Numbered from the stretch's first letter, positions 2,962-20,434 are shown. The stretch is DNA of 64,000 nt from an uncultured Candidatus Saccharibacteria bacterium (GCA_964504255.1 CAZDDU010000002.1:60385-124384); one strand, 5' to 3'. Notes: generated from the sequence alone by a model not told the origin. Made by a program: numbers and translations.

Positions 2962-5663
2962 TGTATGGGCTCTCCGATATTCGGGGAGCCTATTTCTTTG
3001 ATATAATTTTGAACATGTCAGAAACAATTCGTTTTAATACTGTAGAGGAAGAGCTTTCCTACCTTCGCTCGAAGGTAGAGTCGTATAAGGAGAATCCACT
3101 TGAGGTTAAGCGTACTATTTTAAACACTCACCAAGAGCTCCCAGTGCAAGCGAGGAACACCCAAGATGTTAAACAGAGCTTAGATACTTTCTCAAACAAG
3201 CCCGCAGACTCGCAGCTGGACCACATGATGGATGTAAGCCGGACTAAGGGTGTGATGCATGCACTCTCTGTAGCGGAGAAGCTCGAGGATTGGAAGCATG
3301 AAGACGACTTCCATGACTACCTAGTCGAGCTGGTTCGTGGCGGCTTCAGGCCAAGAGATGTGAAGGAGAGTGGGCCTATGTATCGCGCACTCAATATGAC
3401 CCTCTTTGAGATACAAATGCCGGACACAGGTACCGACGGCACGAAGGATAGAGACTTGAAGTCGGTCATCTCCTCGATGGAGCAGTTCTATGCTGGGATG
3501 ATCTCGGTGTCCGAGGAGGCTACAAGAGGTAAGAACTATTTTGTACTTGAAGTGGCCAATAGCGAGGGGAGTGAGGAAGCCAACTTTTTCGTCTCGGTAC
3601 CGAATGAGAAGAGGGACTTATTCGAGAAGCATCTTAGATCCGTATTTCCTAATGTGAGACTAGTAGAGAGGAGTAGGGATTACAACATCTTCTCCGAGCA
3701 CGCTGTCACCGCCGGAGCTGTAGCAGAGCTGAATCAACCTAGTGCGTACCCGCTCAAAACCTATGAGGAGTTTGACCATGACCCACTGAGCTCGCTCCTA
3801 CAATCTTTTTCGAAGATTCCTAGAGACGGCTCAGGTGCAGCGCTGCAAATAATATTTAACCCACAAGGAGATGCTTATACCAAGAAGTATACCTTCGCGA
3901 AGAAGCGAATAGAGAAGGGTCATAGAGCAGGGGACATCTTGGCCGAAAGGTCTTTAATGGGCGAGTTTGTGCACGGACTGTCAGAACTCTTCGGTGGTAG
4001 GAAAATTGACGCGACCAAGGTAGATGCAGAGGCGCTCAAGAATATTGATAAGAAGCTCATGAGCCCTATTGTGGCGACAAGTATTCGCATCGCTGTCTCG
4101 GCACAAAATGAGAAGGAGGCTAAAAGTATTGTGTCGAGCATTGCGTCCTCCTTCAACCAGTTTGAATTGCCAAATGTAAATAGGCTTAATTGGCGCGAGG
4201 CCAAGGGCAAGAAGTTCTACAGGAACTTCACCTTCCGACTTTGGGATGATACGGAGATAATGCCACTTAACCTGAAGGAGCTCACAGGACTACTCCACTT
4301 CCATACCACCTCACTCTCATCTAGTGCTCAACTCAAAACCTCTAAGTCTTCAGAAGCTCAGGCACCCCTCTCAATGTCCTCAGGTGGTACAGTGCTCGGT
4401 ACAAACCACTTCCAAGGACACGATAGAACTGTACACATCAGTTACGAAGATAGGCTGCGTCACATATACACTATTGGTCAGACAGGCACCGGTAAGTCGA
4501 CTCTGCTTAAGAATATTATTATCCAAGACATCAAGGCAGGGAATGGCGTATGTATGATCGATCCGCACGGTCAAGATGTGCAGGATGTCCTTGCTAGCAT
4601 CCCTAGAGAGAGGATGGACGATGTGATCTACTTCGACCCAGCATCGACAGATAGACCAATGGCCCTAAACATGCTCGAGTACGATAATGACAAGCCAGAG
4701 CAGAAGACCTTCGTGGTGAACGAACTTTTCAGCATCTTCCAGAAGCTCTATGGCAAGGTGCCAGAGAGTATGGGACCAATGTTCGAACAGTACTTCAGGA
4801 ATGCGACTATGCTAGTTATCGACGACCCATCTAGTGGCTCGACCTTGCTCGATGTATCAAGAGTACTCTCTAATAAGGAGTTTCGAACTATGAAGCTAGA
4901 GAAGTGTACTAACCCAGTAGTTCTACAATTCTGGCGTGAAGTAGCGGATAAGGCTGGTGGAGAAGCGGCGCTAGCTAATATCGTGCCTTACATCACCTCG
5001 AAGTTTGACGTCTTCCTAGCGAACGACATCATGCGTCCGATCATTGCTCAGGAAAAATCCTCAATAAACTTCCGAGAGATAATGGATAGTAGGAAGATCT
5101 TGCTTGTTAACTTGTCGAAGGGGAGACTTGGTGATGTGAATGCTAATTTGATTGGTCTCATCCTCGTTGGAAAGATTCTTATGGCGGCACTTTCAAGGTC
5201 TGGTTCTACGGGCTTCCCACCCTTCTACCTACACATAGACGAGTTCCAGAATATTACTACCGACTCTATCGCGACCATTCTCTCTGAGGCTCGCAAATAT
5301 AAGCTCTCTCTCACTGTTGCGCACCAGTTCATCGCTCAGCTGGAGGAGAATATTAAGAACGCAGTCTTCGGCAACGTTGGATCTATCATTGCCTTCCGAG
5401 TAGGAGCAGACGATGCAGAGTACTTAGAGAAACAGTTTACCCCAGTCTTCTCCGCCAAGGACCTTATGAATATTGATAACAGAAATGCGTTCTTGAAGTT
5501 ACTCGTTGATGGCAGACCAGAGAAGCCATTCTCCATGGAGACTCTTGCTCCTAGTGAGGGCAACAGAGAATTGATAGATATCTTGAGTGAAAGGACCAAG
5601 CTGAAGTACGGCAGAAATAGGGAAGAGGTGGAGAAAGAAATCCTTGCCAAATACGGCGCTTAA
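2958..5663 (+). CDS. Large soluble P-loop NTPase. The C-terminal half is VirD4/TraG/TrwB-like (FtsK-HerA superfamily, coupling-protein-like). The N-terminal 450 aa have no recognisable domain.
   Basis: 901 aa. Walker A is GQTGTGKST. A CMIDPHGQD motif follows, resembling the DPKGE motif of VirD4/TraG. Walker B and the region that follows read YLHIDEFQNIT...LTVAHQ, like the TraG-D_C DEF.N region. No TM helices are predicted. Confidence 0.6.
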   Translation: MMYGLSDIRGAYFFDIILNMSETIRFNTVEEELSYLRSKVESYKENPLEVKRTILNTHQELPVQARNTQDVKQSLDTFSNKPADSQLDHMMDVSRTKGVMHALSVAEKLEDWKHEDDFHDYLVELVRGGFRPRDVKESGPMYRALNMTLFEIQMPDTGTDGTKDRDLKSVISSMEQFYAGMISVSEEATRGKNYFVLEVANSEGSEEANFFVSVPNEKRDLFEKHLRSVFPNVRLVERSRDYNIFSEHAVTAGAVAELNQPSAYPLKTYEEFDHDPLSSLLQSFSKIPRDGSGAALQIIFNPQGDAYTKKYTFAKKRIEKGHRAGDILAERSLMGEFVHGLSELFGGRKIDATKVDAEALKNIDKKLMSPIVATSIRIAVSAQNEKEAKSIVSSIASSFNQFELPNVNRLNWREAKGKKFYRNFTFRLWDDTEIMPLNLKELTGLLHFHTTSLSSSAQLKTSKSSEAQAPLSMSSGGTVLGTNHFQGHDRTVHISYEDRLRHIYTIGQTGTGKSTLLKNIIIQDIKAGNGVCMIDPHGQDVQDVLASIPRERMDDVIYFDPASTDRPMALNMLEYDNDKPEQKTFVVNELFSIFQKLYGKVPESMGPMFEQYFRNATMLVIDDPSSGSTLLDVSRVLSNKEFRTMKLEKCTNPVVLQFWREVADKAGGEAALANIVPYITSKFDVFLANDIMRPIIAQEKSSINFREIMDSRKILLVNLSKGRLGDVNANLIGLILVGKILMAALSRSGSTGFPPFYLHIDEFQNITTDSIATILSEARKYKLSLTVAHQFIAQLEENIKNAVFGNVGSIIAFRVGADDAEYLEKQFTPVFSAKDLMNIDNRNAFLKLLVDGRPEKPFSMETLAPSEGNRELIDILSERTKLKYGRNREEVEKEILAKYGA

Positions 5664-14939: not shown

Positions 14940-16172
14940 CTAGAGGGTCTCCCCCATGGATGGAATATTTAAAAGCCGTCTTGGTCTTATGTCCCTCACT
15001 CTCATTGATCCTAGGCTCGACGCCAAGGCCATGGTTCTGCTCCCGTATCTCCTATCGAGGCCGTCTGTAATTTCAAAAATATTTTTCCAAATACTTTTCT
15101 TCTCGCTTTCTCCAAACAAATCCTCTTGGATTAGATCCTCAGGTACCAAATTGGCCAAAGTGACCCCAGTTGCCCTATATAGGGTCTCTTCGTCATATAT
15201 AGTGTCAAAGACCTTAAGAACCTCGTTCATTATGAGCGTTGGTGAGCTTGTGGCTTGTGCTAGTTGCATATCGATTCGTTTGTATCTAAATTCCTTGGTT
15301 TTGAGGAAGATATAGATGTGTTTGCTTGTAAGACTTAGTTGTCTTGCATGTGCAGAAGCTCTTTCTGCATTTCTAGAGAGTTCAGAGAGCAAGAACTTCT
15401 TATCTCTTGATGCTTTGCCGAAGGACTTAGTAGATTGAACACTCTTCTGATCATTTGTAGAAGTGTCGCTCGAGTGTAGTTGATGTACCTGAGTACCACG
15501 GAGTTCGTGCCAAGTCTCGAGAATCGGTCTAGAGAAATTTGATGATATATAACTCATAGGCCTTGATACAAAGTCGTGTGCAGTCCTTATGTTGTGGCGG
15601 TTAAGTTCTATAGTGCTCGACGGACCGATACCCCAGACACTGCCTATTTGGAGCTTCTGCAAGATCGTCTCAATGTTGTTCTTATCTATAATTGTTAGAC
15701 CATCAGGCTTCTCCCACTTGCTAGCTACTTTGGCCAAGACCTTCGTCTCTCCAAGTCCGATGCTAAATGTCATGCCGAGTTCTTTCCTTAAATCTTTCCT
15801 TATGGACTCTGCGATGCTTTTGTAGGTCGTGCCAGGCTTCTCAAGATGAGTGATATCAGCGAAGCATTCGTCTATAGAGTATTCCTCGACTATATCGGTG
15901 TAACGTCGCACAATATTGTACATCCTTTGAGCGAACATGCCATATATGTGATAGTGCGACTCGACTATAAGAGCTGTCGGATATAGCTTCCTAATCATGA
16001 ATACGGGCATACCCCGACTAACTCCTAAAGCCTTCGCCTCCTTGCTCATGGCAGTGGCTATCCCCCGCTCGTGGCCTGTCACCACTGGTTTGCCTTTAAG
16101 TTTGGGGTTCAGTGCTACCTCACACGAGGCGAAGAAGGAGTCCCCATCTATGTGTAGTATCGCTCTTCTCAT
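14940..16172 (-). CDS. Y-family (DinB/UmuC-type) translesion DNA polymerase.
   Basis: MRRAILHIDGDSFFASCE is the catalytic-Asp motif. SIDECFADIT follows. 410 aa. It lies 6 bp downstream of lexA. Confidence 0.85.
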   Translation of the reverse strand: MRRAILHIDGDSFFASCEVALNPKLKGKPVVTGHERGIATAMSKEAKALGVSRGMPVFMIRKLYPTALIVESHYHIYGMFAQRMYNIVRRYTDIVEEYSIDECFADITHLEKPGTTYKSIAESIRKDLRKELGMTFSIGLGETKVLAKVASKWEKPDGLTIIDKNNIETILQKLQIGSVWGIGPSSTIELNRHNIRTAHDFVSRPMSYISSNFSRPILETWHELRGTQVHQLHSSDTSTNDQKSVQSTKSFGKASRDKKFLLSELSRNAERASAHARQLSLTSKHIYIFLKTKEFRYKRIDMQLAQATSSPTLIMNEVLKVFDTIYDEETLYRATGVTLANLVPEDLIQEDLFGESEKKSIWKNIFEITDGLDRRYGSRTMALASSLGSMRVRDIRPRRLLNIPSMGETL

Positions 16173-16178
16173 TATTAA

Positions 16179-16745
16179 TTATTTCTTATATTTTCTTATC
16201 ACAGCTCTTACGACTGCGGGTATAGATAGAGACTCTTCGGGGTATATGTCATCAAACTTTTCGTTAGCGGCTTCTAAATAAACTTTTTTGTTTTTCATTC
16301 GGTAGTACTTCATGGTGTACTCGCCATCGACTTCGGCTATCACTATGTCGCCAATCTTAGGTGTCACCCCTCGCTCTACTAACACCGTGTCTCCTGGGAG
16401 TATTCCCGCATTGATCATGCTCTCACCCTTCACGGTGAGCATATATGTCGCCTCTTTTTTTTCTACGAGCCATTCATCTAGACTCATGGTGTCTAAGAGT
16501 TCTTCGGATGCCGATGTGGGGAACCCAGCTTCCACCACTCCTAGGACCATGATCTCCCCCAAGTTCTTTGGTAAGAGTCTGCCCGTATCATCTCTGTCGA
16601 TGAAGCCCTTCTTAATAAGTTTGTCTGCGAAGTAGTGCACAGCAGATTTACTCTTGTAGCCCAATAGTCTCTGAAGTTCCGAGTAACTCGGCATCCTCTT
16701 CTCCTCTCTATAAAAGTCTGCAATCTTAGCTACTTCTAATTCCAT
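16179..16745 (-). CDS. lexA: LexA-like repressor (N-terminal wHTH plus S24 peptidase).
   Basis: The N-terminus has a LexA-type wHTH. An Ala-Gly cleavage-site region reads VVEAGFP. The S24 Ser is in VKGESMINAGI, and the Lys is in KYYRMKNKK. Confidence 0.8.
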   Translation of the reverse strand: MELEVAKIADFYREEKRMPSYSELQRLLGYKSKSAVHYFADKLIKKGFIDRDDTGRLLPKNLGEIMVLGVVEAGFPTSASEELLDTMSLDEWLVEKKEATYMLTVKGESMINAGILPGDTVLVERGVTPKIGDIVIAEVDGEYTMKYYRMKNKKVYLEAANEKFDDIYPEESLSIPAVVRAVIRKYKK

Positions 16746-16768
16746 ATCATTAGTATATCATCCAATTA

Positions 16769-16780
16769 GAACAATCGTTC
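16769..16780. promoter_or_regulatory. Cheo-type LexA box GAACAATCGTTC.
   Basis: A perfect GAAC-N4-GTTC palindrome 24 bp upstream of the lexA start codon. Confidence 0.6.
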
Positions 16781-16817
16781 TAAACCAGTGGATAAGAAAA
16801 AGACCCATAAAAATGGG

Positions 16818-17162
16818 TCATGTCTGTACTACAAGCTCACAATACGAAACTGGAGCCAGTACTATGCGGAGATGAACTCCACCAGTCTGCATCCCAGCTT
16901 CTTCCATGATACCCTTCAGCCATTCAGCGATCATATCTCGCCTTTCGTTCAGATTGACTGCACGGGTCTCACGGTGGTTGCAGGTGATATCGATGAATAT
17001 CGTAGAAAGATGTGAGACAGAGATCTGTTGCACCACGACCGTGTCCACATCCAGACTCTTCTTAACTACTGCTTCGATCTCCCGATGAACTCTTAAGGTG
17101 AGGGCCATCTTCACGTCAGGTTCAAGGAATTGATCGTTCACATAGATAGTCACGAGTGGCAT
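16818..17162 (-). CDS. Possible tautomerase-superfamily (4-OT/MIF-like) protein. Weak call.
   Basis: If translation starts at M25 of the ORF, the protein begins MPLVTIYVND.., i.e. Pro-1 after Met removal. Two beta-alpha-beta-like repeats follow. The ORF track extends to 17234 with a TTG start. Confidence 0.3.
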   Translation of the reverse strand: MPLVTIYVNDQFLEPDVKMALTLRVHREIEAVVKKSLDVDTVVVQQISVSHLSTIFIDITCNHRETRAVNLNERRDMIAEWLKGIMEEAGMQTGGVHLRIVLAPVSYCELVVQT

Positions 17163-17281
17163 TGGGAGCCTCATAGGAGGGTGAAGGTTCAAAATGACTA
17201 TCCCCACCCTATCGACAAGGAGACTCATTGTCAAAGCACTTCTTTTCCTAGCCCTCCCCTAGGTAAAAAACTTAGGATAAG

Positions 17282-17305
17282 AAAAACCACCCTATCTACG
17301 GGTGG
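17282..17305 (-). terminator. Terminator of P1.
   Basis: CCACCC-tatctac-GGGTGG followed by TTTTT on the minus strand, immediately after the P1 stop. Confidence 0.55.
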
Positions 17306-17306
17306 C

Positions 17307-17795
17307 CTAAGTATCTGGATGAAGTCTATGGAAGTTTTGCTTCGCAATCTCTCGCTTGAGAAGACTCATATGTGGCTGGAATACGAGAGTCGAGTCACTC
17401 AGTCCTTTGGTGCTACAAATTGTACATGTCAGTCGGCTGAGACCACTCGAAGTCGTATCGTCGACCACTCGGTGACCATCGTCCTCTCGAACTCTTGTGA
17501 TATCAACTTCAAGTGCTCCTTGGAGGATGAGTGGGAGTCCACCAAGATTGTGTCTGATCATCGTATCTGCCTCACCAGCAAGGACCTTGAAGTCCGCTTC
17601 CTCCTCGTCGGTGACAATCTTCACGCTGATAGAGAGCATTCTCGATTCATCGGTGGTCCTTGGGGGCCTGATGCTCGCAAGAACTCTCTCCGTTTTGAAG
17701 ACTGTCTTGATGATTATTGGCAGGCTGATGATAAGTTGCCCCAACTCTCTGTCGCTAACGAAGCGCTGGTCTCGGAAGATCTCGATCGTATTCAA
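17307..17795 (-). CDS. P1: the Cys/His small-domain family member that carries a 105-aa N-terminal extension.
   Basis: 162 aa with a TTG start. GAGGTGA lies upstream. A promoter reads TTGACA-17-TAAAGT. The C-terminal 55 aa are paralogous to P2 and P3. Confidence 0.6.
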   Translation of the reverse strand: MNTIEIFRDQRFVSDRELGQLIISLPIIIKTVFKTERVLASIRPPRTTDESRMLSISVKIVTDEEEADFKVLAGEADTMIRHNLGGLPLILQGALEVDITRVREDDGHRVVDDTTSSGLSRLTCTICSTKGLSDSTLVFQPHMSLLKREIAKQNFHRLHPDT

Positions 17796-17842
17796 AGGTC
17801 ACCTCGCGAAGGATTGTCTGGTATGACTTTACTAGTTTACAT

Positions 17843-18073
17843 TTATGTTGTCAAAAAAAGAAAAACCACCCAAGAGTCTGGGTGGGTCCTACACTCTGAT
17901 TGCCTAGAAGCGTGAGCCTCAAAGAAACCAGAGACAACCTCGTGCCATCTGTTGCTCGGCATGGCGGGTTCTCGAACAACTTCTGCGCAGTCGCAATGAC
18001 TACCTCTACAGGTGAATCTCTCGAGGCCGCTTGTTCCAGCGGAGTCTCTCACAATATCGTGCACGTTGGTCAT
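17843..18073 (-). CDS. P2: small Cys/His domain protein, paralog of P1 and P3.
   Basis: 76 aa. The shared pattern is H-D-(I/V)-V-x-D-S...E-R-(F/Y)-T-C-x3-4-C...(E/Q)-P-x-M-(S/P)...F(F)-x2-H-x-P-D. The last 12 codons read through the terminator hairpin. Confidence 0.55.
   Translation of the reverse strand: MTNVHDIVRDSAGTSGLERFTCRGSHCDCAEVVREPAMPSNRWHEVVSGFFEAHASRQSECRTHPDSWVVFLFLTT
17853..17886 (-). terminator. Terminator of P2. The hairpin has the same stem sequence as the P1 terminator.
   Basis: CCACCC-aagagtct-GGGTGG followed by TTTTTCTTTTTTT on the minus strand. Confidence 0.5.
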
Positions 18074-18100
18074 TAGCCTATCTCATTGAGGAGCGGTCTG

Positions 18101-18118
18101 TGTACGAGTTTACACAAG
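18101..18118. promoter_or_regulatory. Inverted repeat TGTGTA-N6-TACACA upstream of P2. Candidate operator.
   Basis: A perfect 6-bp inverted repeat about 30 bp upstream of the P2 start codon. Confidence 0.3.
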
Positions 18119-18144
18119 AGAAATGAAAAATTTATGAATGAAAA

Positions 18145-18165
18145 AAGTCACCGCTTGGGTGACTT
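18145..18165 (-). terminator. Terminator after the YefM-like gene.
   Basis: AAGTCACC-gcttg-GGTGACTT followed by TTTTTTCAT on the minus strand. It overlaps the TGA stop. Confidence 0.5.
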
Positions 18166-18324
18166 GTTTGTCTTTGGCTTTTCCTTATAGGGTCCAAGGA
18201 TAGCCAATGGTCTGCCGTGGTTCGTGATCACGTAACTCTCACCGAGAAGCTTGACCCTATTCAGGATCATGGACATCTCGTCTCGAAGTGTGGTGACGCT
18301 GATGATGGTTGTCTTATCTTTCAT
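18148..18324 (-). CDS. Phd/YefM-family antitoxin-like protein, truncated (58 aa). Not in the ORF track.
   Basis: MKDKTTIISVTTLRDEMSMILNRVKLLGESYVITNHGRPLAILGPYKEK matches the YefM/Phd N-terminal fold signature (..ISvtEaR..ls..l..v....viIT..G.P.AvL...). No toxin gene lies downstream. It sits 23 bp downstream of P3. Confidence 0.55.
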   Translation of the reverse strand: MKDKTTIISVTTLRDEMSMILNRVKLLGESYVITNHGRPLAILGPYKEKPKTNKSPKR

Positions 18325-18347
18325 CCGCTCTCCTGATGAAGATTGGG

Positions 18348-18536
18348 TTACTTGATATTTGGATCAGCGGGAGGATGTCGGTTGAAGAACGTTTTCTTGA
18401 TCTTCTCCCAGAAGGCATTGCTCATGTGGGGCTGCCGGGTTATCCCGTTTTGTCCACACCCAGGGCTGTTGCAGGTATATCTTTCGGCTTGGGCGAATCC
18501 ACCACTGTCCTTCACCACATCGTGGCCGTGTGCCAT
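18348..18536 (-). CDS. P3: small Cys/His domain protein, paralog of P1 and P2.
   Basis: 62 aa. AAGAGGA lies 5 nt upstream of the ATG. A TTGACA-16-TATTGT promoter lies upstream. Confidence 0.55.
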   Translation of the reverse strand: MAHGHDVVKDSGGFAQAERYTCNSPGCGQNGITRQPHMSNAFWEKIKKTFFNRHPPADPNIK

Positions 18537-18581
18537 TGAGTCCTCTTGAAAGTGTCTTTCTAGAACAATACTGCAAAAATA

Positions 18582-18755
18582 CTAAATGTCAAAGTTATCA
18601 GACGCCTCTATATAGTAGCTGTACATCCCCTCCTGCTCTAGTTGGAACTTGACCACCTTAGGGACCCAAAGACCCTTGGTAAAGATAAGAATAAGTCCAA
18701 TACAAATAAGTATCGCAAGCACTATCTGGATAAATTTTAAAGTGTTTGTACTCAT
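18582..18755 (-). CDS. 57-aa single-TM mini membrane protein. Not in the ORF track.
   Basis: MSTNTLKFIQIVLAILICIGLILIF... Its ATG lies 1 nt after the stop of the upstream 34-aa ORF. Confidence 0.35.
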   Translation of the reverse strand: MSTNTLKFIQIVLAILICIGLILIFTKGLWVPKVVKFQLEQEGMYSYYIEASDNFDI

Positions 18756-18756
18756 G

Positions 18757-18861
18757 CTAGTCGAGCAGACCCTCCCACCACTTCATGGTGTTGTTTAGGA
18801 AAAAAATAGCAGGTGCATAGAGTGGTAAAAGCAGGAAGAATAAAAATTTTTTTGCATTCAT
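18757..18861 (-). CDS. 34-aa hydrophobic peptide.
   Basis: MNAKKFLFFLLLPLYAPAIFFLNNTMKWWEGLLD. It is packed 1 nt after the stop of the 93-aa gene (TAAcATG). Confidence 0.25.
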   Translation of the reverse strand: MNAKKFLFFLLLPLYAPAIFFLNNTMKWWEGLLD

Positions 18862-18862
18862 G

Positions 18863-19144
18863 TTAGTTGTTTGGTGTGTAGTTACCTCTTCCCCAGTCAA
18901 TAAAGTTGTTGAAGTTGTTCCAGGCTATGTCGAGTATTGGCCAGACTATCCTATGCCAGATAAACACAACTGGTGCAGATATATATGACCATACTAGGTT
19001 CACAACATCTCTAATGTAGAGGATAGTCGACTTACCTTGCTCTGTAGAGGCAGCATCGAATATATCCCAGTTTAGGAAGTACTTCAAGAGAGTTAAGGCG
19101 ATGATGACTATAACGATGATCATGACGAAGCCTTTGCTTTTCAT
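18863..19144 (-). CDS. Small membrane protein.
   Basis: 93 aa with 2 TM helices. It lies 13 bp downstream of the M23 peptidase gene. Confidence 0.45.
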   Translation of the reverse strand: MKSKGFVMIIVIVIIALTLLKYFLNWDIFDAASTEQGKSTILYIRDVVNLVWSYISAPVVFIWHRIVWPILDIAWNNFNNFIDWGRGNYTPNN

Positions 19145-19156
19145 AACTTAATGCTA

Positions 19157-20434
19157 CTAGAGGTTGGGTAGATAGCCAAGTGGGTCAAGATAGTCTCTTG
19201 GGTTAGCAAGCGGGATGCTAACATTCTGACAATTCTTGCTCGATGAGTAAGGAAGGATCTGTACTCCAGCTGTAACGAAGAGGCCGAAATGGAGGTGTGG
19301 ACCGGTCGAGAAGCCAGAACCATTTTGCCTTGGCTGGCCTCCAGTGTAGCCTATAACCTGCCCCTCACTCACATCCTGTCCAGTTGTTACTATGGACCCT
19401 GATAGGTGTGCGTAGAGGGAAGAGAGCCCGTTGTTATGTCTTATTAGTATCCACCTTCCGTACGAGTAGCACCCCCTTTGGTCGTCGGTGTTACCAGTGC
19501 CTGACACCACTCCCCCTCTCACACTTTTTACCGGTGTACCAACGGTGGCTCTGAAGTCTATACCATTGTGAGTGCCCGAGACATAAAGTCTAGTAGATGC
19601 ACTGGTCCTACCGAATTGTTGAGTGATAAATACATTCTCGAGAGGCCAGGCAAGAGCACCTCGACCCGCTGTTGGTCTCTCTGATGCATCAGATGCAGTA
19701 AGAGCAGACTCGAACTGGAAGAGTAGTCGCTCGAACTCTTCCTCGCGAGCCTTATTTTCTTTAAGCATTTTTTGGTACTCGGCTTCTTTGTTCTTGGTGG
19801 CGGCTAGCAATAGGGCTTGAGCGGTACGGGTCTCGTCTACAACTCTCTTTTGCCCACTGAGTTGAGAGGAAAGACTGACGAGTTGTTTCTTTTGCGACTC
19901 CTTGGCAACCTTGTTCTCAATCAATTTTACCTGTGTCTTCTCGAGAGTGTTTATGCGGTCATTGATCTTGTCCTGGAGGTCCCAGATATTCACTGTGTCA
20001 GACCACACTTCGTCTAGTGACTCATAACTCAAAAGACCGAAGACGAAACTCTGTTTATCATAAGATGCTATCCGTTGCAGAGATTCTTTAATAGCGCTTT
20101 TATGAGTTTCTATCTCAGACTCATTTGTGCCTATGTCACCCTCGAGTTTCTTGATAGTAAGATTCGATGTGTTGATGTTTGCCTGAGTAAGCTTGAGGTC
20201 ATTAGCAAGCTTGCTCCTGGTAGTGTCGAGTGTCTTAACGTTTGTTTGTAGAGTCTGACCCTCTTTAGAAACTTCGTTTAAGGCAGTTTGCAACTTCTTC
20301 TGCTCCTCAAGTAGCTTGTCTCGCTCTCTCTTGGTCTCCTCGATTTTCTGCTGTATATCTGAATTAGTCTGTGCCGAGCTTATAGTGGGGAAGAATGAGA
20401 AAGTTACTATTAGTATGAGTAAGAGTTTTTTCAT
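19157..20434 (-). CDS. M23 (LytM) metallopeptidase with an N-terminal coiled coil (EnvC-like).
   Basis: HNGIDF...GPHLHFGL carry the M23 zinc ligands. The N-terminal 230 aa are coiled coil, preceded by a signal peptide. Confidence 0.85.
   Translation of the reverse strand: MKKLLLILIVTFSFFPTISSAQTNSDIQQKIEETKRERDKLLEEQKKLQTALNEVSKEGQTLQTNVKTLDTTRSKLANDLKLTQANINTSNLTIKKLEGDIGTNESEIETHKSAIKESLQRIASYDKQSFVFGLLSYESLDEVWSDTVNIWDLQDKINDRINTLEKTQVKLIENKVAKESQKKQLVSLSSQLSGQKRVVDETRTAQALLLAATKNKEAEYQKMLKENKAREEEFERLLFQFESALTASDASERPTAGRGALAWPLENVFITQQFGRTSASTRLYVSGTHNGIDFRATVGTPVKSVRGGVVSGTGNTDDQRGCYSYGRWILIRHNNGLSSLYAHLSGSIVTTGQDVSEGQVIGYTGGQPRQNGSGFSTGPHLHFGLFVTAGVQILPYSSSKNCQNVSIPLANPRDYLDPLGYLPNL

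Follow-up and report, generated by a model that had tools for sequence, protein, structure and literature searches.

A Phd/YefM-like gene confined to the N-terminal domain forms a strain-variable two-gene cassette with a P-family gene upstream of lexA in a CPR lineage

In the window, by which we mean the whole 64,000-nucleotide stretch of DNA that was analysed, a gene for a 58-residue Phd/YefM-like protein lies directly behind P3, a member of an uncharacterised family of small proteins, and the two constitute one bicistronic accessory cassette that is inherited and lost as a unit in this Parcubacteria (CPR) lineage. The Phd-like protein is best filed as a solo variant of its fold family that consists of the N-terminal domain only and is tied to a member of the uncharacterised family. 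As to its role, we tentatively propose that it serves the P3 cassette as a minimal autorepressor that binds DNA as a dimer; in this proposal, to which we give not quite an even chance, the binding of DNA, the choice of operator and the repression are inferred.

The cassette is a 435-bp block on the minus strand (18144..18578), which comprises a leader, P3, the Phd-like gene and the stem of a terminator, and which is present or absent as a unit. P3 (18348..18536, minus strand) encodes 62 amino acids and is supported by its ORF, a family profile, an alignment, an AlphaFold2 model and dN/dS. It is followed, after a 23-nt spacer (18325..18347, minus strand) with the Shine-Dalgarno-like sequence AGGAGAG 4-5 nt 5' of the ATG, by the Phd-like gene (18148..18324, minus strand). 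Two small, adjacent and co-oriented genes with a 23-nt spacer and one terminator have the features of a single transcription unit, and each of the two is preceded by its own Shine-Dalgarno-like site.

Four metagenome contigs (L003, L004, L005 and L008), whose LexA is identical to that of the window, are 98-99% identical to it over 19300..18579 and again over 18143..16101, with 7 bp replacing 18144..18578. The pair is present, directly after a gene for a 57-aa membrane protein, in L001 (87-91% nucleotide identity) and in L039/L040 (76%). Because it occupies the same position in these lineages, the pair is probably ancestral at this site and was deleted in the L003-type strains, and it is the joint presence and absence of P3 and the Phd-like gene that leads us to regard them as one accessory cassette. 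The initial annotation had named P3, 23 bp upstream, as the only partner of the Phd-like gene, and P3 is indeed its only constant neighbour. Adjacency of the two genes in relatives was recovered in part: they occur together in the window, L001 and L039 and are jointly missing from the four metagenome contigs, but eight other P-family loci carry no Phd-like gene.

The 58-aa ORF was confirmed on the minus strand where it had first been placed, and its translation is MKDKTTIISVTTLRDEMSMILNRVKLLGESYVITNHGRPLAILGPYKEKPKTNKSPKR. Its description as an unannotated gene needs amending: the NCBI and Logan gene calls already hold an identical 58-aa product, so gene callers did not miss the gene everywhere, though the product is unnamed there. 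Exact-product look-ups with the 58-aa and 62-aa proteins found no encoding contig, and word-index homology searches returned near-identical proteins only (7 matches in one search). The orthologues share 83% (L001) and 62% (L039/L040) amino-acid identity with the window protein, with length and frame unchanged. The core motif YVITNHGRP does not vary among the three lineages, whose nucleotide identity is 76-91%, and the GGAG of the ribosome-binding site is kept in L001 and L039. In the comparison with L039, dN/dS was 0.11-0.13 (with dS saturated), which argues that the ORF encodes a protein under purifying selection, and we take it to be a functional gene. Between the window and L001, dN/dS was 0.60 on 16 changes, a value indistinguishable from neutral.

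In the comparison of the window with L001 (495..671), dS was 0.14 for the Phd-like gene (0.07 for codons 1-45), 0.71 for P3 and 1.15 for the 57-aa gene. The low value for the Phd-like gene suggests that the cassette is a mosaic or has recently recombined internally, or else that constraint acts at the nucleotide level.

By its sequence, the 58-aa protein belongs to the Phd/YefM fold family. It scored 27.1 bits against TIGR01552 (phd_fam; cut-off 20.8, E = 1.9e-6), and the scores of the three orthologues (27.1, 25.7 and 29.1 bits) all exceed the cut-off. Its score against PF02604, 24.9 bits, is below the gathering score of 29.8 because the match covers only positions 2-44 of the 74 in the model. 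The closest PDB match by sequence was VapB46 (E = 1.3e-4, 43% identity); further top matches were RelB1, Phd and 3dbo_A, a chain labelled as an uncharacterised protein in the PDB table, which we take to be VapB5. An AlphaFold2 model (pLDDT 78.6) has beta strands at residues 5-9, 30-35 and 38-43 and a helix at 14-27, in keeping with an N-terminal beta-alpha-beta-beta dimerisation and DNA-binding domain over residues 5-43; the 15 residues after residue 43 (44-58) form a Lys/Pro-rich, disordered tail of low confidence. When this model was compared with the PDB by Foldseek, the best 15 matches were all Phd/YefM-fold antitoxins, with an rmsd of 1.8 Å over 42 residues for the N-terminal domain of VapB46, and a probability of 0.99 and an rmsd of about 2.1 Å over 39 residues for that of Phd. 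The TIGR01552 score, the VapB46 match and the AlphaFold2 and Foldseek results thus bear out the YefM/Phd N-terminal fold that had initially been claimed.

Two features that define these antitoxins, the neutralising tail and a cognate toxin, are lacking. The C-terminal neutralising segment of Phd/YefM antitoxins is intrinsically disordered and about 25-40 residues long. Here 15 residues follow the third strand and positions 45-74 of PF02604 are unmatched, so that the absence of a C-terminal toxin-binding tail, which the initial annotation had noted, was confirmed. The accompanying claim that no toxin follows also held: on its 3' side, 74 non-coding bp separate the Phd-like gene from P2, a P-family gene, and no Doc, YoeB/RelE/ParE or PIN gene lies directly downstream in the window, while L039 has a DUF1653 gene past the terminator. 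A custom Phd HMM found no second Phd-like gene in the 64-kb window. The tail motif KSPK is conserved among the orthologues, but its codons double as terminator stem; because the codons for K-S-P-K-R and the stop codon together form that stem, the conservation is not assignable to the protein. The KSPK tail may have some function.

The terminator at the end of the cassette (18139..18165, minus strand) is an intrinsic one, with an 8-bp stem, a 5-nt loop and a U6 tract. Its hairpin (18145..18165) reads AAGUCACC-CAAGC-GGUGACUU, followed by UUUUUU, and extends over the stop of the Phd-like gene, whose last five codons lie in the stem. The predicted folding energy is -10.7 kcal/mol (z = -3.9), none of 200 shuffled sequences folded as well, and a 7-bp stem with its T-tract is kept in L001, L039 and L038. 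The rho-independent hairpin that had been recognised over the stop codon is therefore well founded.

At the other end of the cassette, the leader (18541..18562, minus strand) contains the inverted repeat TAGAAAG-ACA-CTTTCAA, and then the P3 ribosome-binding site AAGAGGA. The core of the leader, AAAG(A)ACACTTTCAA, does not vary between the window, L001, L039 and L038 despite saturated synonymous sites; the arms of the repeat are 7 nt long, with one mismatch in two of the three lineages. As an RNA hairpin the leader folded no better than shuffled sequences (z = -0.2). We consider the inverted repeat a candidate operator, or possibly an RNA hairpin. Because the repeat overlaps the ribosome-binding region, its conservation could mirror translation signals.

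A sigma-70-like promoter match (18565..18592, minus strand; TTGACA, 16 nt, TATTGT), which agrees with the consensus at 10 of 12 positions and is a consensus match only, has its -35 hexamer inside the end of the upstream 57-aa membrane-protein gene, and the inverted repeat falls between its -10 match and the P3 ribosome-binding site. L001 has a comparable match, TAGACA-16-TATTAT. No terminator was found between P3 and the genes upstream, so read-through transcription of the cassette from these genes is possible. A search of Rfam with 16700..19200 returned nothing. Control of the cassette by LexA was considered and rejected: the P3 leader has a half-box only, which is not kept in L001 or L039.

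Dimerisation and operator binding are functions of the N-terminal domain of Phd, whose disordered C-terminus binds Doc (PMC4803016), and a DNA-binding N-terminus joined to a toxin-binding C-terminus is the general architecture of antitoxins (PMC7354431). YefM is described in PMC1802561 as a dimeric autorepressor that binds palindromes. We propose a minimal autorepressor because the part retained here corresponds to the domain with which Phd and YefM dimerise and repress their operons, and because the leader repeat is conserved. The Phd-like protein would dimerise through its N-terminal domain, the dimer would bind the inverted repeat in the cassette leader, and the bound dimer would repress transcription of P3 and of its own gene. 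The domain would thus keep the job that it has in Phd/YefM antitoxins in a protein without the toxin-neutralising half, and P3 would be regulated cargo rather than a toxin. For a regulator speak the absent tail, the purifying selection, the unit nature of the cassette, the conserved leader repeat, the P-family loci that have no Phd-like gene and a nonsense allele in L038, where codon 29 of the Phd-like gene reads TAA in place of GAA and P3 is intact (a single contig). The initial annotation had offered, as one of two readings, a stand-alone DNA-binding regulator of the P-gene array. A regulator is the better of these and looks more like the case than a toxin-antitoxin pair does; control of the array has to be given up, since the L039 pair occurs without P2 or P1. 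A partnership of the two proteins with each other would likewise be compatible with the strict co-occurrence of their genes in three lineages.

The other reading offered there, a non-canonical toxin-antitoxin-like pair in reversed order, now seems unlikely. P3 would inhibit growth and the Phd-fold protein would neutralise it through its folded domain or its basic tail, which would make the pair an addiction or defence cassette. Reversed gene order is found in the type II modules HigBA, MqsRA and HicAB, and the two small genes here are tightly linked, share one terminator and keep strict linkage in three lineages. They are gained and lost together, being both gone at once in the L003-type strains, and the module is strain-variable, as toxin-antitoxin and defence loci typically are. 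The Phd-like protein also evolves faster than P3 (dN 0.26 vs 0.10), and antitoxins often evolve faster than their partners. However, P3 shows no similarity to toxin or defence families: with P3 and 45 relatives, no toxin match was obtained in Pfam, NCBIfam or PADLOC, and no match to a PDB sequence or fold. In addition, P2, P1 and eight P-family loci elsewhere (L009, L010-12, L013, L015/27, L028, L034, L044 and L045) have no Phd-like ORF or other antitoxin-like neighbour, as judged with the custom Phd HMM, which detects the genes of the window, L001 and L039 as well as a canonical plasmid gene. Elsewhere, then, the P family is independent of Phd-like genes, and its members are kept without the would-be antitoxin at all of these places. 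To these may be added the premature stop in L038, again beside an intact P3 and on a single contig, and the missing canonical neutralising segment.

Also unlikely, and disfavoured by us, is that the gene is a decayed remnant of a canonical Phd-toxin module, from which recombination at a terminator removed the C-terminus and the toxin, so that a stump with hardly any function, or none, is now carried along by P3. In the nearest annotated relative a PIN toxin comes after a Phd of 79 aa, the ORF ends inside the terminator stem, other cassette junctions in the same hotspot also lie at terminator T-tracts, and degraded orphan antitoxins are common (PMC7354431). This reading is kept alive by the near-neutral dN/dS of 0.60 between the window and L001 (16 changes) and by the nonsense allele in L038. 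It is weakened by the value of 0.11-0.13 in the deeper comparison and by a length and frame kept in three lineages at 76-91% nucleotide identity, with YVITNHGRP invariant; a ribosome-binding site that is conserved and TIGR01552 scores above the cut-off in all three orthologues likewise count against a remnant.

A somewhat smaller chance falls to the possibility that P3 and the bare Phd/YefM N-terminal domain form a new two-component module, in which the Phd-fold protein would serve as a dedicated neutraliser or co-repressor. If true, this would be a new toxin-antitoxin-like or effector-regulator pairing, mobile as a cassette in CPR genomes, with a P3 family that may bind zinc. It is quite improbable that the gene is an orphan 'anti-addiction' antitoxin acting in trans to neutralise a toxin whose gene lies at another place in the genome or arrives with a mobile element or phage; such a role has been proposed for orphan antitoxins, which are widespread (PMC7354431), but the canonical toxin-binding segment is absent, the custom HMM detected no further Phd-like gene within the 64 kb of the window, and the constant linkage to P3 would be left without a reason. 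That the ORF arose by chance between P3 and the terminator and is not a gene is effectively refuted and hardly credible: with its 58 aa it is short, it stays under the Pfam gathering threshold and it gave no encoding contig in the exact-product look-up, but three orthologues pass the TIGR01552 cut-off, the PDB matches are specific in both sequence and fold, dN/dS against L039 is 0.11-0.13, and the ORF has its own Shine-Dalgarno site.

Among known systems, Phd of phage P1 and YefM of E. coli have the N-terminal beta-alpha-beta-beta fold in common with the 58-aa protein, and it passes TIGR01552, the family model. Phd has 73 residues in PDB chain 3k33_C and YefM about 83, against 58 here. The protein described here differs from both in having no C-terminal toxin-binding region and no doc or yoeB after its gene, and the gene stands second in its operon, behind an unrelated small gene. 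The best matches by sequence and structure together are VapB46 and VapB5 of Mycobacterium tuberculosis, which are antitoxins of PIN toxins; these have a C-terminal extension and a downstream VapC, whereas the Phd-like gene has neither. The 44-residue N-terminal domain of VapB46 was crystallised as an independent domain, and a domain of this size can therefore fold alone.

The nearest annotated relative comes from the plasmid collection and is the antitoxin of a Phd-PIN pair (AUC62563.1 / AUC62564.1) on plasmid pCHL69-2 of Cyanobacterium sp. HL-69, with 35% identity over residues 7-58. That pair is canonical: the antitoxin, of 79 aa, comes first, and the PIN toxin begins 3 bp later. It was the only hit when the plasmid collection was searched for relatives of P3 and the Phd-like protein, and the GenBank phage collection yielded none. 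Orphan type II antitoxins are widespread, degraded ones are common, and solitary antitoxin genes are frequent in genome surveys (PMC7354431). Like the gene described here, they are antitoxin-family genes with no recognisable toxin beside them (PMC7354431); here, however, the neutralising half is also gone, there is purifying selection, and there is a constant link to one member of a gene family that is not toxin-like.

If the autorepressor proposal is true, the gene would be a natural case of the DNA-binding domain of an antitoxin being reused as a plain transcription factor, and would provide a regulator in a streamlined CPR genome; to our knowledge, few regulators are known in CPR genomes. 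Antitoxin genes that are solitary or truncated are common, so the weight of the finding is modest. Its wider context perhaps matters more than the gene: upstream of lexA there is a hotspot in which self-contained small-gene cassettes are swapped between near-identical strains, and a widespread, unnamed family of small proteins has come to light, with a confident predicted fold that has no match in the PDB or BFVD. The hotspot and the P family answer no long-standing question.

The P-family profile was built from the three window paralogues (P1, P2 and P3) and run on 1.84 billion representatives, where it found 109 proteins at E <= 1e-3; most have 60-75 aa, and some have N-terminal extensions. 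The domain of about 55 residues has the motif H-x4-D ... R-x-T-C-x2-4-C ... M ... W ... F ... H-P, and the family HMM gives P3, P2 and the C-terminus of P1 scores of 94-130 bits. In P3 the conserved columns are H5, D10, R19, T21, C22, C27, M38, W43, F50 and H54, and its dN/dS is 0.08-0.11. The H/C/C/H set, together with a weak resemblance to the zinc knuckle of eL43, suggests metal binding in the family and a possible zinc knuckle in P3. The AlphaFold2 model of P3 (pLDDT 89.4) shows a beta-hairpin, a third strand and a helix, and nothing significant was found with this fold in the PDB and BFVD. P3 matched no family in Pfam, NCBIfam or PADLOC. The sole match in PHROGs was phrog_13348 (no known function), obtained with 5 of 46 aligned members of the family. 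Of 24 loci found with a degenerate DNA pattern for ATLVRQP[YHFL]M, only four (three independent) contain P-family genes. A contig scan with P3 returned a single match, in a Salinivirgaceae MAG; it was antisense and spurious. CPR, high-GC and phage-like contigs all contain members of the family, which may stand alone, lie in tandem or form a C-terminal domain; L045 (63..457) carries two P genes in tandem.

On the minus strand the genes around the cassette run in the order M23-peptidase gene (19157..20434), three small membrane-protein ORFs, P3, the Phd-like gene, P2, P1, a 138-aa ORF, lexA and a Y-family polymerase gene. The last of the three membrane-protein ORFs is the 57-aa gene (18582..18755, minus strand). 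Its dN/dS of 0.00-0.03 across three lineages indicates that this minus-strand ORF is the real gene at a site (L003 2432..2596) where the public calls for L003-L005 have a 54-aa gene running the opposite way.

Between the conserved 57-aa gene and lexA lies a hypervariable hotspot (16746..18581 in the window), with counterparts in L003 (2594..4000), L038 (1..1020), L039 (3041..4000) and L013 (1..374). In near-identical and related strains its contents vary among the P3/Phd-like pair, P2, P1, a 136-138-aa gene, a DUF1653 gene and a single P gene. The pair is followed in the window by P2, P1 and the 138-aa gene, in L039 by the DUF1653 gene and in L038 by a 138-aa-type gene; the more distant L013 has a single P gene directly before lexA. 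Several cassette ends consist of a hairpin and then TTTTT(T)CTTATCC (16790..16818 and 17275..17303 in the window; about 300..332 in L013; about 3470..3488 and 3930..3962 in L039). Since several ends share these elements, an exchange of cassettes by recombination at terminator-like ends is suggested, and TTTTT(T)CTTATCC may serve this exchange as a recombination site or as a duplicated target. In L039 and L038 the DNA beyond the Phd-like gene continues directly, at the junction, with the sequence found past the P1 terminator of the window.

The 138-aa ORF (16818..17234, minus strand; likely true start MRLPMPLVTIYV) lies just upstream of lexA. It is kept in L003 and L038, has the DUF1653 gene in its place in L039, and gave no match in Pfam, NCBIfam, PHROG or PADLOC. 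Then come lexA (16179..16745, minus strand) and dinB, the Y-family polymerase gene (14940..16172, minus strand). The LexA of the window is at least 90% identical to HRH25403.1, with which it shares a 90%-identity cluster. A LexA box of the Gram-positive (Cheo) type, a perfect GAAC-N4-GTTC with the sequence GAACAATCGTTC, is located 24 bp upstream of lexA (16769..16780, plus strand); only two perfect boxes occur in the 64 kb, and the one upstream of lexA is also present in L013 and L039. This box marks the fixed downstream border of the variable hotspot.

The 12-nt motif TGTAAACT[AC]GTA occurs exactly twice in the window, 5' of P1 (17830..17841, where it overlaps the -10 match) and 5' of P2 (18103..18114, where it belongs to the inverted repeat GTGTA-N6-TACAC). 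Control of P2 and P1 by the Phd-like protein through this motif was considered and rejected, the motif being missing from the P3 leader and the L039 pair occurring without P2 or P1. P1 (17307..17795, minus strand) is a 162-aa ORF in which the P-family domain is the C-terminal 57 residues; it has its own promoter-like site and its own terminator (17284..17308), and no Phd-like partner. P2 (17843..18073, minus strand), a P-family paralogue, likewise has its own terminator (17866..17885) and no Phd-like partner. Near the 3' end of P2 (about 17889..17899), L003 has GAGTTGTAG where the window has GAGTGTAG, a 1-bp deletion in the window near 17893; because of this deletion the window P2 runs through its terminator and has 76 aa (...ECRTHPDSWVVFLFLTT), compared with 61 aa (...ASRQSEL*) in L003. 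P2 is intact in the strains that are without the P3/Phd cassette.
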